DNA of 64,000 nucleotides, taken from Deltaproteobacteria bacterium. GTDB taxonomy: Bacteria; Desulfobacterota; Binatia; UBA9968. Below, in pieces: positions 8,335-51,062 of this stretch. The position numbers and the translations under genes are program-made. The DNA is taken from assembly GCA_016193465.1 (NCBI GenBank), contig JACPSE010000006.1, forward strand, positions 13,684 to 77,683, in the 5' to 3' direction. The notes below the pieces were generated by a model, which had not been told where the DNA came from, did no database searches, and was given only the letters and a program-made list of their open reading frames with translations. Positions within the stretch are counted from its first letter, which is position 1. Every line of letters begins with the position of its first letter.

Positions 8335-8523
8335 ATGGAGAAAGCGCCAAAAAAGTGCATGGTATGCGGCCAGCCCACGCCGCTCAAGGGCGGGATCTGC
8401 GAGCCGTGCCAGGAGCGGATACGCAGGGAGGCGATGGGGCAGCAAGCGGATGCGCGCAGCCAGGCGGAAAAAGAGCTAAGAAAGCACGGCGTGGTTCCGG
8501 ACCAGGGGAAGGAGCGTAAATAA
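8335..8523 (+). CDS. Small zinc-finger-like protein (CxxC...CxxC)
   Basis: 62 aa with CMVC and CEPC plus a helical tail; fills an otherwise empty interval. Confidence 0.7.
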   Translation: MEKAPKKCMVCGQPTPLKGGICEPCQERIRREAMGQQADARSQAEKELRKHGVVPDQGKERK

Positions 8524-8595
8524 CGAGCGGGAATTGCGTCCTTTCGACCAACAGACGGGGACAACGAGATGCCCGCCGTCCAGCATGGGAGAGAG

Positions 8596-9081
8596 ATGGA
8601 CGAAAAAGAAAACCTGGAAAGGGCCGTGAAACTCTTCCGCGAGGCCTATCGCCGTCAGATGGAAGGAGAGCTGGAAGAAGCGATGCGCCTCTACCAAGAG
8701 TCGATCCGTTGTTACCCGACCGCAGAGGCCTACACATTTCTCGGCTGGACCTTGAGCTTTCAGGGACGCTACGAAGAGGCGATCGAACAGTGCAAAAAGG
8801 CCATAGCGGTGGATCCAGATTTCGGCAACCCGTATAACGATATCGGCGCCTATCTCCTCAACCTCGGAAGGATAGATGAAGCGATTCCGTGGCTTGAAAA
8901 AGCCACAAAGGCGGGACGCTATGAGGCTTATCACTATCCCCATTGTAATCTCGGCCGCGTCTATTTGGCCAAAGGGATGTTAAAGAAAGCCCTGGAGGAA
9001 TTTGAGAAGGCCCTAGCCATTGAGCCCAACTATGCCTTCGCGCGTCAGGCCGCGGAGGCTATCCAGCAGCAGCTTCACTGA
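8596..9081 (+). CDS. Tetratricopeptide repeat protein
   Basis: Repeated AYTFLG...EEAIEQCKKAI, PYNDIG and HCNLGRVYL TPR units. Confidence 0.93.
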   Translation: MDEKENLERAVKLFREAYRRQMEGELEEAMRLYQESIRCYPTAEAYTFLGWTLSFQGRYEEAIEQCKKAIAVDPDFGNPYNDIGAYLLNLGRIDEAIPWLEKATKAGRYEAYHYPHCNLGRVYLAKGMLKKALEEFEKALAIEPNYAFARQAAEAIQQQLH

Positions 9082-9224: not shown

Positions 9225-10451
9225 CTGAAAGATAAAAGACATCTGGGTTTTTTCCCCATCCTGACCCTTTTTTTCTTATCGTCCTTTCCTTCTCCGCTCT
9301 GGCCCTCTTTCCCCGAGGAGGCGCTCACTGCACGCTCAGCCCTGCTGATGGACGCTACCAACGGGCAGGTCCTTTACCAGCGTGAGCCTGACCTTCCTCT
9401 GCCTCCGGCAAGCACAACCAAAATCGTAACCGCGATTGTCGCGCTAGAGAGCAACCGGCGAGGAACAGACCTTTTGAGCGTGACCAAGACAGCGACGCGT
9501 GTTCCTTCGTCAAAGCTCTTCCTGCGTCCGGGTCAGGCGATGTCCGTTGAGGACCTGCTCTACGGCTTGCTCCTCTCTTCCGCCAACGACGCGAGCCTGG
9601 TGCTGGCTGAAGGTATCGCCGGCTCCGTGGAGCGTTTTGCCGAAATGATGACCAGGAAGGCGCGAGAAATAGGAGCAGCCAACAGCCATTTCGCAAATCC
9701 CCATGGGCTCACGGCCCCGGAACACTACTCGACCGCGAGGGACATGGCCCTGATCTTCAACTACGCGATGAAAAATCCGACTTTCCGGGAAATCGTCCAG
9801 ACAAAAGCAGGCTCCGTCAGTTCCATCGCCACCGGCAAGGTCCAAAGGGTACGCCACATCCAGCTACGCAACCACAACCGGCTCCTTTGGAGCTTCGAGG
9901 GGGCCATTGGAGGCAAGACCGGTTACACCTACGCGGCCCAGAAGTGTTTCGTCGGCGGCGTGTCGCGCAATGGAGTGACTCTGATTGTTGCCATTTTGGG
10001 CTCCAGAGACCTATGGGGGGATGCCGGGAGGCTGCTCGAATATGGACTCAGGAATTACGAGGCTCTGAAGACTGCCCCGACAATCGCCGCTCCCTCCCAA
10101 ACCGACGGCCACGTCGCCCTGGGGCCAGAAAAGCCCTCTTCGCCCCTGTTTTCCTGGGAAGAAGAAAGAAAAGTCCAGTCCCTCAGCGGATACCTCCTGC
10201 AAATAGCCTCTTTCCGCGAGCGGGAGCGTGCAGAGTCACTTCAGAAGTGGATCACTGAGGGAGGCTATCGAGCATTTTTAGAAAAGGTCTCTCTCAATAA
10301 TGGCGACACCACCTACCGGGTCAGAGTCGGTCCCTATGCCGAGCTGGTTCTTGCTCAGGAGGCTGCCCGGGAGATCGAGAACAAAAGCGGTTTCAGGGCT
10401 ATCATCCTGCCGGCGTCTGCTGTAAGCCCATTCCAAGACAAGCCCAGCTAA
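9225..10451 (+). CDS. D-alanyl-D-alanine carboxypeptidase (peptidase S11) with C-terminal SPOR domain
   Basis: ASTTK (SxxK), SAND (SxN) and GKTG motifs; SPOR-like YLLQIASF...YRVRVGPY. The start is probably CTG 9225, behind AAGGAGG, which adds a signal peptide (ORF track starts at 9348). Confidence 0.92.
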   Translation: MKDKRHLGFFPILTLFFLSSFPSPLWPSFPEEALTARSALLMDATNGQVLYQREPDLPLPPASTTKIVTAIVALESNRRGTDLLSVTKTATRVPSSKLFLRPGQAMSVEDLLYGLLLSSANDASLVLAEGIAGSVERFAEMMTRKAREIGAANSHFANPHGLTAPEHYSTARDMALIFNYAMKNPTFREIVQTKAGSVSSIATGKVQRVRHIQLRNHNRLLWSFEGAIGGKTGYTYAAQKCFVGGVSRNGVTLIVAILGSRDLWGDAGRLLEYGLRNYEALKTAPTIAAPSQTDGHVALGPEKPSSPLFSWEEERKVQSLSGYLLQIASFRERERAESLQKWITEGGYRAFLEKVSLNNGDTTYRVRVGPYAELVLAQEAAREIENKSGFRAIILPASAVSPFQDKPS

Positions 10452-10473
10452 TCCCTCATTTTTTTCTTTCCGC

Positions 10474-11214
10474 TCAATCTCGGATCTCAAGCACCATTCC
10501 GTCTTCGGCCAACAGGACATCCACTTCTGCCCTCCGGGCCAGCATCTCCTCGCCCATGTGGGTTAGAATGAGCGTCCTGCACTCCAGGCGGGAGAGGTTT
10601 TGGCGGATTCTCTGATAGTTCATGTGATTGGTTGTCTCGCGATCGAAGAAACTGCACTCGCAGAGAAAGACATCTGTCCCGCGCGCGTGCGTGATAAAAA
10701 GATCGGTCCAGGGGGAATCCCCGGAATAGAGAATCTGTTTTCGTTCGTAATGGACTTTCAGTGCCAAGGAGATGGCGCGGACTTGATGCGGGACGCGAAA
10801 GGGGAAGACTACAATCCCGGCGACCACAGCTTCTCTATCAGGCTCCAAGACATGAAAGAGGGTTGGCGGGAGTTCCTTCGGCTCTGAAACGTCGCCGAAC
10901 ATAGACTGAAAGAGACCACGGACGCGCTCTTCGCTGCCGGCGGGACCCGCAACGTGCAGAGGTTTGGCGCGCGGCTTCTCGTAGAGATATTCCAGAAAAA
11001 AGAACGGCAGTCCGCCACAGTGGTCCCCGTGGAGATGGCTGAGAAAAATGGCATCCAGACGCCGCGTATCAAAGCCCGCCCGCTTCATGGCTGGCAGAGT
11101 AGCGGGACCGCAATCCAACAGAAAAATTCGATCCCCGGCCTCCACCAGGTAACCGCTGTTGTTCCGGCCGCCGCTCCCGAAGGCATCACCGCAGCCAAGG
11201 ATGTGGAGTTTCAT
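10474..11214 (-). CDS. MBL-fold metallo-hydrolase (RNase Z/BN-like)
   Basis: LGCGDAF, LLDCG, SHLHGDHCGG, YSGDS and LTH motifs. Confidence 0.92.
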   Translation of the reverse strand: MKLHILGCGDAFGSGGRNNSGYLVEAGDRIFLLDCGPATLPAMKRAGFDTRRLDAIFLSHLHGDHCGGLPFFFLEYLYEKPRAKPLHVAGPAGSEERVRGLFQSMFGDVSEPKELPPTLFHVLEPDREAVVAGIVVFPFRVPHQVRAISLALKVHYERKQILYSGDSPWTDLFITHARGTDVFLCECSFFDRETTNHMNYQRIRQNLSRLECRTLILTHMGEEMLARRAEVDVLLAEDGMVLEIRD

Positions 11215-48182: not shown

Positions 48183-48300
48183 GCGTGAAGCTCTGGTTAA
48201 AGGAGTAACAAATTTCCGGCTTCTTCTGGAGTCAGAGAAACTCCATTGCGACGTAAGCCGGCCGGTCTACTTCTCTCGCAGGGTGACACCTGAAAAGAGA
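48181..48300 (+). pseudogene. Internal fragment of a NUDIX hydrolase paralogous to 51063-51794
   Basis: KREALVKGVTNFRLLLESEKLHCDVSRPVYFSRRVTPEKR vs KRESLVEGNIDFRSLLESEGLYCDLRRPVYFSHRVTPEQR (28/40 aa identical). Confidence 0.85.
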
Positions 48301-48354
48301 GGGAAAAGGGGGACATTGTACTTTTCGGATGTTGGGTCGAATTTCAAAGAGGGG

Positions 48355-48497
48355 TCTTTCCACGTGACCCACAGCATGAGCTCGGGGCGCTGTCTATCTC
48401 CCCGCGGCCATAAAGGCTGATGCCACTGATTGATCACCAGACAATATTCGGCAACGCGGATGCCAGGCTCGCCCAGCCGATCCCGGCAGCTTGACAA
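48355..48497 (-). mobile_element. Degenerate fragment of a REP-associated/IS200-like HUH (Y1) transposase
   Basis: GIRVAEYCLVINQWHQPLWPR...ELMLWVT resembles the IRxLAYCLMPNHWHLVLWP...FMxWLT consensus, with the HxH motif eroded. Confidence 0.55.
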
Positions 48498-48613
48498 TCT
48501 TCAATTTAGTCCCGTAAAGTTTGTGATTGCGAATTCAGTGTCAGACTTGACAGACAGGAAAGTTATTCTACGTGGTGCGGTTCCGTGCCAGGAATCATTC
48601 CATTTCACAGTCT

Positions 48614-48850
48614 CTACCTTACCATCTCCGTCATCTTTTCGGCAAGGCCAATAGCCTCCACAGCATCTTTTTCGGTGTAGGTTTTGCACGGCGGGGCTTG
48701 CCAGGGCATCAGGATAGCGCGTGGGAATATAATAGCGATCCAGAAATTTTGCGCCCTCGTTGAGCCAGTCACGAAAACGTTTCTCCGTCTGTTTGATAAC
48801 AACTACATCTACATTGCTCTGCTCGAGGTGGCTTCGTGTACTGAACTATC
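48614..48850 (-). pseudogene. Chimeric MNT/HEPN toxin-antitoxin remnant
   Basis: EQSNVDVVVIKQTEKRFRDWLNEGAKFLD (MNT-like) continues in frame into RYYIPTRYPDAL (HEPN Rx motif), then a frameshift precedes KTYTEKDAVEAIGLAEKMTEMVR*. Confidence 0.8.
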
Positions 48851-48859
48851 AGCAGCGAG

Positions 48860-49303
48860 TCAAGAAGTCTGCAAATGATGGCTAGGCCGGCTTAGAATCT
48901 GAGCCACAGACCCGTAGGCAGTACCTTCTAGCCCTTCGAGACTGTGCTCGATGTCTTCTGACCTTCCAAGCTTACTTGTCCATCTTCCGTTTGCCAGTTG
49001 TCTCGCAGCGTGAGTTGGCCTACCTTGTGCGTTGACGTAGATCGCGATCTTTTCGAATCCCGCCTCCAAGGCAGCGGTGTCAGAGGGAGTGTAGCCAAGG
49101 CTTAGGAATGCTTGGAGATATGCCTCCAGTGTGAACTCACGGGGTGAAGTTTCTGGCCAATAATAGAGTCCTTGTGGATCGGGCTCCCACCACCGGCTGT
49201 CTTCCGTTGCAGCCCAACCAATACAGTTATAATCAGGACTAGCAGGGCTAGTAACTTGGTATCCAGTGGTTTTCAGGTGTGGAAACCATTCCTCGAGCGG
49301 CAT
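48860..49303 (-). CDS. Hypothetical protein with a putative Cys-His catalytic pair (DUF7689-like)
   Basis: TSPASPDYNCIGWA...WWEP...YYWP...KIAIY...THAARQ...WTSKLG..EDIEH. Family assignment from memory of the motif; needs an HMM check. Confidence 0.75.
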   Translation of the reverse strand: MPLEEWFPHLKTTGYQVTSPASPDYNCIGWAATEDSRWWEPDPQGLYYWPETSPREFTLEAYLQAFLSLGYTPSDTAALEAGFEKIAIYVNAQGRPTHAARQLANGRWTSKLGRSEDIEHSLEGLEGTAYGSVAQILSRPSHHLQTS

Positions 49304-49312
49304 GTTCAGGAT

Positions 49313-49765
49313 TTACAAGTGGCCTTCTTCTTTTCCCCAACGCAGCCACGCCTCTACCATTTTTCTAATCTTGCCCCGCTCCGATGGCTTTACTGGGTCT
49401 ATCCCAGTAATGGCTTTCAACGCCCAGAACCAGTGATCTGGTTTGTTTTCAAGCTCACGGAGTATGAGCGGGATAGCAGCAGGCCCCATTCCAATAATCT
49501 GCTGGTACGCGGGATGCATAGCCATTTCGGTAACAGAAGATGATGCTTGCGTTTCATTCCTCCACGTATCTACAAGGCCCCGGAATTTTTGTGCGGGCGT
49601 TTCCCTGCTAACAGGGAAAAGAGAGTGATTGGTTGTTTCAAACCATCGAAATACGATAACGTTGGACTCTTCACTTAGGCCTTCGGTATTCACGTCTAGC
49701 AAATATGCCCGTGGGGTATACTGCCTCCTCAGGGGCGACGCAAGGTCGGTATGAGCTAAGTTCAT
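49313..49765 (-). CDS. Hypothetical helical (HEAT-like) protein
   Basis: KF..L...WRNET...SS..EM.MHPAYQQIIGMGP.AIPLILREL...PDHWFWALKAITG.DPV; ATGA overlap with the upstream gene. Confidence 0.8.
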   Translation of the reverse strand: MNLAHTDLASPLRRQYTPRAYLLDVNTEGLSEESNVIVFRWFETTNHSLFPVSRETPAQKFRGLVDTWRNETQASSSVTEMAMHPAYQQIIGMGPAAIPLILRELENKPDHWFWALKAITGIDPVKPSERGKIRKMVEAWLRWGKEEGHL

Positions 49766-50553
49766 CGGAGGAAAAGCTCCTTCGTTTTATCTGTTATGCT
49801 TTTAAAAAAGATATTGTTCTTCAAATCTCGGAGATTTTCAAATACTTGCCACAACGCTCTATCTTTCACTTCGAACACCTTTAAGCAGAACACGTCAATG
49901 TCAAGTATCAAAGGAACTTTCGTAGAGTCTGCGCTAGGCTCCATGGCCTCCGTGATTATCGCCGTAGCAGGTATCTCCGGCTCCGGAATAACCAACTGCA
50001 TAAAGTACTTTACTGGCCCTTGAGGTAACGCGGCAGCTATTTCTGGCACAGTAAGGATATAGTCCTTGAAATCCCGCATCGGTAATGGAATCTCCATACG
50101 GTTGATATATCGCAGCGCTGTGCGCGTGATTTGTCTAGGCTGTGCCACCTCGACGTAGAGCTGCCAAAGGTCCCGTGCCTGGTCTCGAAAGGTTTCCCAT
50201 CTATCATAAGGCTTTAGTCTGTTGAATGTAAACCCATCCAGACGCGCCTGAACAATTTGCTTCCCGTCCGAGGAAGTAAATAGGTAGCCATCTGGCCCGC
50301 TGTGTGACTGAAGGACTTCAAGCTCACCTCCTCCAGCCAGCTTCAAGCCACCCCGCCATGACTGTCTCTCCCGTTTATTCGGATAGCGCGCTTTCACAGA
50401 ATTGTAGAAGGTTGCTAACTGAGCCAAATTTACGTCTTCAGGTAGTTGGACCCTAATGTCCAAAAGCGCTTCTGTGATTGGCGCATTTGGAAATGTTGTC
50501 CAGTCGGCCACGCTTACCTTTATAGTCGATTCTGAGTAGTCTAACAAGCTCAC
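49762..50553 (-). CDS. TIGR04255-like sporadically distributed protein
   Basis: FPNAPITEALLDIR...GYLFTSSDG..IVQ...DGFTFN.L.PY..WE.F...RTALRYINR...ILDIDVF pattern. Confidence 0.8.
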   Translation of the reverse strand: MSLLDYSESTIKVSVADWTTFPNAPITEALLDIRVQLPEDVNLAQLATFYNSVKARYPNKRERQSWRGGLKLAGGGELEVLQSHSGPDGYLFTSSDGKQIVQARLDGFTFNRLKPYDRWETFRDQARDLWQLYVEVAQPRQITRTALRYINRMEIPLPMRDFKDYILTVPEIAAALPQGPVKYFMQLVIPEPEIPATAIITEAMEPSADSTKVPLILDIDVFCLKVFEVKDRALWQVFENLRDLKNNIFFKSITDKTKELFLR

Positions 50554-50629
50554 TACCCAGGGTTCAGATCTTGAACTTTATGCTCCATTCCAGGGCAGTC
50601 TGCTCATACGCTGCAGGGCATCTTCTCTA

Positions 50630-50959
50630 TTAGCCTGGATAGATAACCCTCCCCTCAGTTACTACTTTTTCAATAAACGGATTTTCCCGCCGCCGCATCT
50701 CTTCAAACTCCTCTCTGGTATAGACAAACACGTCCACCTTTCCCAGGTCATTATCCAAAAATTTCGCGACCTCAAGGAGCCGATCAAGAAAGCGCGCCTG
50801 CGTCTGCTTGATGACTACTACATCCACATCGCTCTGCTCGTCAGCCTCCCCTCGGGCACACGAGCCAAAGATGATGATCTGTTCTGGATCGTAGCGCTTC
50901 AGGCAATCCACCACTTTTTGTACCTTATCCATCAAGCCGAAATATACCACCACATCCAA
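50630..50959 (-). CDS. Minimal nucleotidyltransferase (MNT) antitoxin-family protein
   Basis: IIIFGSCARGEADEQSDVDVVVI (GSx10DxD) and VDVFVYT.EE motifs. Confidence 0.93.
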   Translation of the reverse strand: MDVVVYFGLMDKVQKVVDCLKRYDPEQIIIFGSCARGEADEQSDVDVVVIKQTQARFLDRLLEVAKFLDNDLGKVDVFVYTREEFEEMRRRENPFIEKVVTEGRVIYPG

Positions 50960-51062
50960 TGATCTGCCAACGCCGCCGACTCTATTTCTATTGCACGTGC
51001 CGCCCTTGCTGTGCTCTCATAAAGGACCGTAGAGCGCTGGAGCGTATCTTTCAGTCCCCTAT

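Follow-up and report, generated by a model that had tools for sequence, protein, structure and literature searches.

A sporadic two-gene module with an optional TIGR04255 gene and a putatively papain-like DUF7689 protein: a candidate toxin–antitoxin-like or abortive-defence unit

Type II toxin–antitoxin (TA) systems and their tripartite variants (omega-epsilon-zeta, TAC and paaR-paaA-parE) are the described systems closest to a three-gene cassette that we analysed in a Deltaproteobacteria bacterium of the class Binatia (assembly GCA_016193465.1, contig JACPSE010000006.1). The stretch under study, hereafter the window, comprises the 64,000 nucleotides (nt) from 13,684 to 77,683 of the forward strand of this contig, and positions within it are counted from its first letter. 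Like these TA systems, the cassette, whose genes we call A, B and C, is made of small co-oriented genes that overlap or nearly do so, and the module it represents is sporadic and mobile and found in TA, defence or prophage regions. In addition, the presumed toxin (C) decays while its partner is kept, the third gene is optional, and one operon headed by a relative of A (family TIGR04255) ends in a real zeta toxin. Unlike them, A, B and C belong to no known toxin, antitoxin, chaperone or omega family, B is devoid of a DNA-binding domain, and A, which comes first in the operon, is a 250-amino-acid (aa) protein, probably similar to the TATA-binding protein (TBP), and neither a SecB-like chaperone nor a ribbon-helix-helix (RHH) repressor.

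The second comparison is with NlpC/P60-CHAP hydrolases and their immunity partners, namely Tae/Tse1 with Tai/Tsi1 of type VI secretion systems (T6SS) and LytE with IseA. As in these pairs, the model of C has a cysteine at the start of a helix and a histidine on a later β-strand, a dedicated small partner (B) is encoded beside it, and NlpC/P60, CHAP, LytE and Tse1-like proteins are its best, albeit weak, structural neighbours. It differs from them in that C has neither membership at the sequence level nor, as judged by eye, an evident signal peptide or secretion marker, and in that the partner is helical and encoded upstream.

By comparing the cassette with its relatives, we found that the obligatory unit is the B-C pair and that A is accessory. 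On balance, and with modest confidence, we favour reading the module as a TA-like or abortive-defence unit in which C would be the effector and B would neutralise it or act as its adaptor, with A as an optional component for sensing, regulation or stabilisation. In the window, the three genes are the following:

49762..50511, minus strand: gene A, TIGR04255, 249 aa from the GTG at 50511 (the longest open reading frame (ORF) runs from the GTG at 50553)
49313..49765, minus strand: gene B, 150 aa, no family match
48860..49303, minus strand: gene C, Pfam DUF7689 (PF24738), 147 aa

Since A homologues are 247–250 aa long, several independent gene calls give 249 aa and the GTG at 50511 is preceded by AAGGT at a distance of 5 nt, A probably starts there. 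The ATG of B overlaps the TGA of A as ATGA and is preceded by AAGGAG, while C starts 9 nt past the stop of B. The GC content of the cassette is 0.47–0.52 versus 0.55–0.61 in the flanks. Both the layout of these three minus-strand ORFs, with the ATGA coupling and the 9-nt gap, and the AT-richer character of the cassette had been described in an earlier reading made from the letters alone (hereafter the sequence-only reading), and both were confirmed.

A scan with a C profile over one genome per species gave at least 586 loci, the best 80 of which were retrieved for gene-order analysis. Together with a viral set of 31 IMG/VR contigs carrying C, they make up the 111 loci considered here, in which A, B and C were called with purpose-built hidden Markov models (HMMs). 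C is immediately preceded by B in 79 of the 80 genome loci, the exception being cut by a contig end, and in 29 of the 31 viral-contig loci, with either a 9-nt gap or a 4-nt overlap between the two genes. As in type II TA systems, B and C are thus adjacent small genes of conserved order and coupling, and their co-transcription is predicted from gene order. A precedes B in 26 of the 80 genome loci, which belong to Nitrospira, Planctomycetota/Brocadia, deltaproteobacteria, Methylomirabilota and Caldilineaceae, and nearly all cyanobacterial loci lack it; among the viral contigs, 21 have A-B-C and 8 have B-C with an intact C. Overall, A is present in ~40% of the loci, and its presence on a neighbour-joining tree of C implies ~11 gains or losses. 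In one IMG/VR contig (L091, GC 0.39), A is 25% identical, yet the triad and the ATGA overlap are kept. This divergent triad, taken together with the repeated gain or loss of A, indicates that the triad is ancient and A dispensable. Of the sequence-only idea that the three genes are conserved as a unit, one part therefore stands, since the triad recurs even with so divergent an A, and the other does not, since ~60% of the loci do without A.

The B-C loci span many phyla and a GC range of 0.33–0.69 (genome and viral-contig loci together). The module is frequent in cyanobacteria, Nitrospira, anammox Planctomycetes and Chloroflexi, and prophages carry copies too. When a public protein collection is clustered at 90% identity, A, B and C each account for over 1,000 clusters, many of them on common contigs.

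The way in which the loci decay also separates C from its partners. C is disrupted beside an intact B in 6 of the 111 loci, by nonsense codons (L017, L034 and L059) or by frameshifts and truncations (L118, L119 and L121), and none of these 111 loci has a disrupted B beside an intact C. A is full length in all 45 cases. Such an asymmetry, in which C decays and B is kept, is expected if C is the harmful and costly partner.

C matches Pfam PF24738 (DUF7689) over positions 1–117 of 118, with 139.1 bits for a gathering threshold of 22.6 (E = 1.4e-40). Once 32 diverse sequences were aligned, N26, C27, H98, W108-T-S-K111, D117 and H120 were found to be invariant; C27, S110, K111 and D117, the sole four positions checked in a larger set, are invariant across 201 C sequences. 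In the AlphaFold2 (AF2) model of C (predicted local distance difference test, pLDDT, 90.5), helix 27–31 opens at C27 and strand 96–102 holds H98, that is, the papain-like arrangement of a nucleophilic cysteine at a helix N-terminus and a histidine on a downstream β-strand. D117 and H120 are candidates for the third catalytic residue. The named families topping the Foldseek lists are mostly papain-fold hydrolases, the matches including a Josephin deubiquitinase, AvrPphB, NlpC/P60 proteins, LytE, CHAP lysins, a Tse1-like protein and a tape-measure lysin segment. On these weak fold matches, we liken C to proteins of papain/NlpC-P60 fold, with Cys27 and His98 as the putative active-site residues. 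The papain-like Cys/His signature that the sequence-only reading had pointed out in C thus finds support in the invariance of both residues, in their placement in the model and in the Foldseek matches.

B, in turn, has no match in Pfam, NCBIfam, PADLOC or PHROGs. Its conserved part is a C-terminal helical domain of ~100 residues with the motifs HPAYQQIIGMG, PDHWFWAL and AWLxWG, preceded by an N-terminal extension of ~50 aa. A profile of this domain, which corresponds to no Pfam family, found 9,566 representative clusters at 50% identity; in the 150 best matches listed out of these clusters, the domain is C-terminal behind N-terminal regions of 0–165 residues, sometimes with tandem copies. Any N-terminal Pfam domain was found in only 4 of 52 long B-domain proteins (Response_reg in two, DUF7387 in one and a weak Unstab_antitox in one). 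Moreover, two loci have the B domain fused in frame to a host enzyme. In L073 (4651–7971), it stands at the end of HsdR (HSDR_N, SWI2_SNF2, T1R_D3), in the order hsdM, hsdS, hsdR::B, C, a 112-aa ORF and a PIN-domain gene. In L052 (4496–7975), it stands at the end of a ResIII/Helicase_C helicase and is directly followed by C; in comparison to the helicase-free relative L050, DNA homology restarts exactly where the B domain begins. With its C-terminal position behind variable N-termini and its fusions to HsdR and to a helicase, the B domain behaves as a portable docking domain for C.

The L073 locus calls to mind PrrC/EcoprrI and RloC, in which a type I restriction enzyme holds a latent effector: a complete hsdM-hsdS-hsdR set with B fused to HsdR is followed by C, which suggests that an effector could be tethered to a restriction enzyme. 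The differences are that the module of the window has A where L073 has HsdR, that C bears no relation to the ABC-ATPase/anticodon nuclease PrrC, and that the arrangement was seen at a single locus, with one helicase fusion besides.

The N-terminal extension of B varies with A. Between the stop of A and the B domain there are 49–65 residues in 43 of the 45 loci with A, whereas ~24 of the 58 loci without A leave room for at most 29 residues before the domain. Since a long extension is tied to A, A may bind to it. The start of the B HMM match alone did not cleanly separate loci with and without A; the possible extension length separated them better. Among other members of the B family, some proteins (among P0126, P0361–P0364 and P0220) have tandem B domains, and in one an HU domain (Bac_DNA_binding) follows the B domain, possibly by read-through of the gene call.

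A, which the sequence-only reading had called TIGR04255-like, indeed matches NCBIfam TIGR04255 over positions 2–251 of 252 (145.9 bits, cutoff 30, E = 1.8e-42), and it has no Pfam family. None of the three proteins, A, B or C, had a significant match when its profile was searched against PDB sequences. In the AF2 model of A (pLDDT 84.9), a unit made of a β-sheet and a long helix occurs twice. Foldseek places TBP chains first, with a probability of 0.99–1.00 and an E of 2e-4 but with template-modelling (TM) scores of 0.28–0.39 and a root-mean-square deviation of ~11 Å, and AdoMetDC and the McsB/arginine-kinase domain score near TBP. The fold class of A is therefore likely to be a duplicated TBP-like α/β one. 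Distant members of the family conserve RYINR-E-P, a D-D pair and F..SIT, RYIN and D203 being invariant and E11 nearly so.

In other replicons, TIGR04255 genes lead unrelated operons, in which the stop of the first gene overlaps the next start by 4 to 14 nt except in Thermus and Vibrio. The loci, on plasmids and at one prophage end, are:

L083, 158–2105: TIGR04255 operon
L124, 2989–5165: TIGR04255 operon
L123, 2983–4511: TIGR04255 operon
L122, 2983–4444: TIGR04255 operon
L081, 5001–6831: TIGR04255 operon
L090, 374–2061: TIGR04255 operon

On a Crinalium plasmid, the partners of TIGR04255 are a weakly HEAT-like protein and a protein of no named family; neither was homologous to B or C when compared with the B and C profiles by hhalign, which indicates that they belong to different families. 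On a Vibrio plasmid, one unannotated protein and then a zeta toxin follow. The partner is an HTH (helix-turn-helix) protein in Rhodococcus, and an Xre-type HTH protein plus an unannotated protein in Acinetobacter. The operon adjoins vapBC on a Thermus megaplasmid and an AbiJ-like gene in Methylocystis, and in Ralstonia it lies at a prophage end. Partners of the Xre-HTH type and the zeta toxin suggest that the third position of these operons is an effector slot. A diverse TIGR04255 profile found a single IMG/VR contig, and a metagenome scan with the Vibrio A protein recovered nothing beyond that very sequence. Next to the Ralstonia operon (L090, 2317–3442, at the end of phage YO139_2, labelled 'UNVERIFIED_ORG'), we noticed ORFs that, from sequence alone, resemble T6SS effector-loading genes of the PAAR and DUF4123 types; at this end, the record may contain host chromosome instead of phage DNA.

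Together, these data are consistent with a scheme in which C would act in the cytoplasm as a Cys-His hydrolase whose papain-like fold is a divergent form of the NlpC/P60-CHAP one, and would be harmful when free. B, translationally coupled just upstream, would bind C via its C-terminal helical domain and thereby keep it inactive, and the variable N-terminus of B would connect the pair to a partner. In the window this partner would be A, a presumably two-lobed TBP-like α/β protein whose optional role could be that of a sensor, a regulator or a stabiliser. Gene order, conservation, distribution, fusions and the asymmetry of decay are shown by the data, as is the fold class at the strength given above; binding, toxicity, the trigger and the substrate of C are what we infer here, and the roles put forward in the sequence-only reading (sensor/scaffold, inhibitor and protease) are plausible on the same footing. 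As for the substrate, the zeta toxin acts on a peptidoglycan precursor and the fold relatives of C cut peptidoglycan peptides. Given that a zeta toxin occupies the same operon slot in one TIGR04255 operon, cytoplasmic wall precursors are one candidate, which we mention as a speculation. A more far-reaching version of the scheme, which we regard as possible but doubtful, holds that B tethers a latent DUF7689 hydrolase to swappable nucleic-acid or infection sensors (TIGR04255, HsdR, helicase), and that TIGR04255 would be a TBP-fold sensor heading tripartite abortive-defence operons with exchangeable effectors (DUF7689, zeta toxin and others).

The genes around the module were surveyed as well, and the 386 neighbouring proteins fell into 315 clusters. 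Among 218 representative neighbours, Pfam families include PIN (4), Fic (2), ResIII, N6_Mtase, Methylase_S and Uma2, and further families are AbiEii-type AAA_21, BrxL, nSTAND1, EcoO109I and others, mixed with housekeeping genes; the survey is suggestive of an association with defence islands. Four Brocadia genomes have the triad with a HinfI/N6_N4-methylase pair on one side and an MT-A70/BglII/SNF2 group on the other, the right flank being variable. The hydantoinase/oxoprolinase A and B subunit genes normally form one operon; in Nostocales (L013, L018, L020, L022, L041 and L075), B-C is wedged between them, and these hyuA/hyuB neighbours are kept within one clade only. In Pseudanabaena, B-C lies between ffh/asparaginase/amine-oxidase genes and purA/rplY. 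On one contig, Y2 and Y1 transposases flank the module. On viral contigs, the module stands among genes for tape-measure, terminase, portal, head-protease, integrase and repressor proteins, and in L095, L106 and L111 one of the three genes flanking it most closely encodes the tape measure, a position that would be typical of phage accessory cargo (a moron). The module is thus sporadic and mobile, and often stands in restriction-modification, TA or prophage contexts, in line with the sporadic distribution and TA-island context that the sequence-only reading had proposed.

Several observations weigh against reading the module as a TA-like or abortive-defence unit. The best Foldseek matches of C are weak (E of 0.03–0.3 in PDB and of 0.004–0.2 in BFVD, at least 0.003 overall, with TM scores of at most 0.5), and C matches neither NLPC_P60 nor CHAP in Pfam. 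B has no HTH, RHH or AbrB domain in Pfam, unlike most type II antitoxins, and in one divergent locus (L120) C stands without a detectable B. The decay asymmetry rests on 6 events, some of them from metagenome-assembled genomes, and the survey of defence-gene neighbours had no control set and met many housekeeping genes. Finally, A, B and C have zero matches in PADLOC-DB v2.0.0 at E ≤ 1, and searches for C homologues among PLSDB plasmids and 50,697 isolated phage genomes came back empty.

Other explanations account for part of these data. HigBA, HicAB and MqsRA are toxin-first modules, and A always comes first, mostly with its stop overlapping the start of the second gene, so that A itself might be a toxin or enzymatic effector and the next gene (B, or elsewhere an Xre-HTH gene) its antitoxin; A-B-C would then comprise two effectors and one neutraliser. 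The Rhodococcus and Thermus A genes, which have one obvious partner each (an HTH protein and a 147-aa protein, respectively), the invariant polar residues RYIN and D203 with the nearly invariant E11, and the presence of the enzymes AdoMetDC and McsB/arginine kinase domain among the fold neighbours of A would all suit this idea. We nevertheless judge it unlikely, as ~60% of the B-C loci lack A and all 45 A genes are intact while C decays. Moreover, the Rhodococcus operon is directly followed by an insertion sequence (IS) element and may be truncated, and no toxin fold or motif was recognised in A.

It is more improbable still that the module serves its carrier phages, with C as a peptidoglycan or host-protein hydrolase acting in lysis, entry or counter-defence and B as an inhibitor or chaperone that acts on it inside the cell. 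No phage genes lie near those chromosomal loci that were examined in detail, at least 586 matches come from genome contigs and 0 from the 50,697 isolated phage genomes, and B is fused to host restriction and helicase enzymes. C shows, by eye, neither an evident signal peptide nor a fusion to a virion protein. What speaks for such a role is that the module adjoins tape-measure, terminase and portal genes in IMG/VR contigs, a position that is in itself moron-like, and that phage NlpC/P60 and CHAP lysins and tape-measure lysin segments are among the nearest folds of C. Least probable to us, and by our estimate very improbable, is an ordinary cytoplasmic amidase or peptidase with a regulatory subunit, devoted to the turnover of murein peptides or small amides and free of any role in conflict. 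Metabolic members are indeed established in the NlpC/P60 superfamily, and the cyanobacterial pair lies between the hydantoinase A and B genes or beside asparaginase, amidase and amine-oxidase genes. However, the hyuA/hyuB adjacency is confined to one clade and close relatives carry the same pair in unrelated contexts, while a patchy distribution, carriage by prophages and IS elements, and nonsense mutations of C in several genomes are hardly expected of such an enzyme.

We therefore retain the TA-like or abortive-defence reading and turn to the surroundings of the cassette in the window, where the following features were found:

50630..50959, minus strand: intact MNT-type nucleotidyltransferase (NTP_transf_2 6.7e-12, Polbeta 8.5e-12)
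48614..48835, minus strand: MNT'::HEPN' chimeric remnant, with an 88-nt repeat and a weak HEPN match, frameshifted
48619..50969, minus strand: 2.35-kb block MNT-A-B-C-MNT'::HEPN' (blastn against L125 4800–7148, 82% identity)
50941..50970, minus strand: sigma-70-like promoter match TTGGCA-18-TATATT with TG, upstream of MNT (consensus scan)

The cassette thus lies between an intact MNT gene and a decayed MNT/HEPN copy, as noted in the sequence-only reading. MNT, whose probable start is the ATG at 50932 (100 aa), is upstream of A and co-oriented with it; it scores 39.4 bits against the MntA equivalog model, below the cutoff of 60, and is the sole match to PADLOC-DB v2.0.0 at the locus (candidate families PDC-M05A and PDC-S09). 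A direct repeat of 88 nt, 78% identical, links 48738–48825 to 50753–50840, and the HEPN match in the remnant is weak (0.005); on this evidence, the remnant is an internal MNT fragment joined to a HEPN C-terminus. Its counterpart in L125 is an intact 67-aa ORF, while the copy of the window is frameshifted, and the MNT arrangement is the same in L125–L127. The promoter match may possibly drive a transcript of the four genes MNT-A-B-C, with the limit that the consensus scan gave a site count not above the shuffled expectation. No RNA run containing the locus was found.

With respect to MNT/HEPN type VII TA systems, the likeness is that an intact MNT and a HEPN remnant bracket A-B-C and move along with it; unlike in those systems, HEPN is here a 67-aa chimera, frameshifted in the window, and MNT falls below the MntA cutoff. 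Given that the block 48619–50969 is 82% identical in nucleotides over 2.35 kb in contigs with entirely different flanks, the cassette moves, in this lineage, nested in a broken MNT/HEPN locus. For the other loci, the list of recurrent neighbour families contains no NTP_transf_2 family, which indicates that MNT is not part of the general module. In L125, a second MNT copy (8432–8737) lies 1.5 kb downstream of the block, together with a HEPN_Toprim_N protein (9281–10567), so that the block there belongs to a larger TA/defence cluster.

In four metagenomes from groundwater and soil, window positions 48309–48509 (edges ~48300–48472), just past the block, reach an assembler depth of ~150-fold the genome average (for example 2163 versus ~15), and many contigs break inside. 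Such depth and breaks point to a repeat of high copy number or to a mobile-element end; this stretch has no Rfam, tRNA, folding-signal, Pfam or plasmid match. The transposase relic that the sequence-only reading had placed near the cassette could not be verified, the ORF at 48267–48497 having no Pfam match.

The searched literature contained nothing relevant on TIGR04255, DUF7689, PF24738 or IPR026349, nor on papain-like or NlpC/P60 TA or defence systems, and with PADLOC likewise silent on A, B and C, the expectation that the cassette matches no described system was borne out. Mobile TA or defence modules are known as a kind; the tripartite architecture with its promiscuous TIGR04255 head, and its components, are undescribed. 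If our reading is true, the module would represent a new class of TA or defence effector, a cytoplasmic NlpC/P60-like cysteine hydrolase, and would add a large family of neutraliser or adaptor domains (~9,500 clusters at 50% identity) that has no Pfam entry. It would also give a first functional context to TIGR04255, long annotated without a known role. If the version with a docking domain and a TBP-fold sensor is true, both the B domain and this class of sensors would be novel to defence biology. Through the HsdR and helicase fusions, restriction enzymes gain a direct and testable link to a latent effector, in a module that is common where defence systems are poorly explored.

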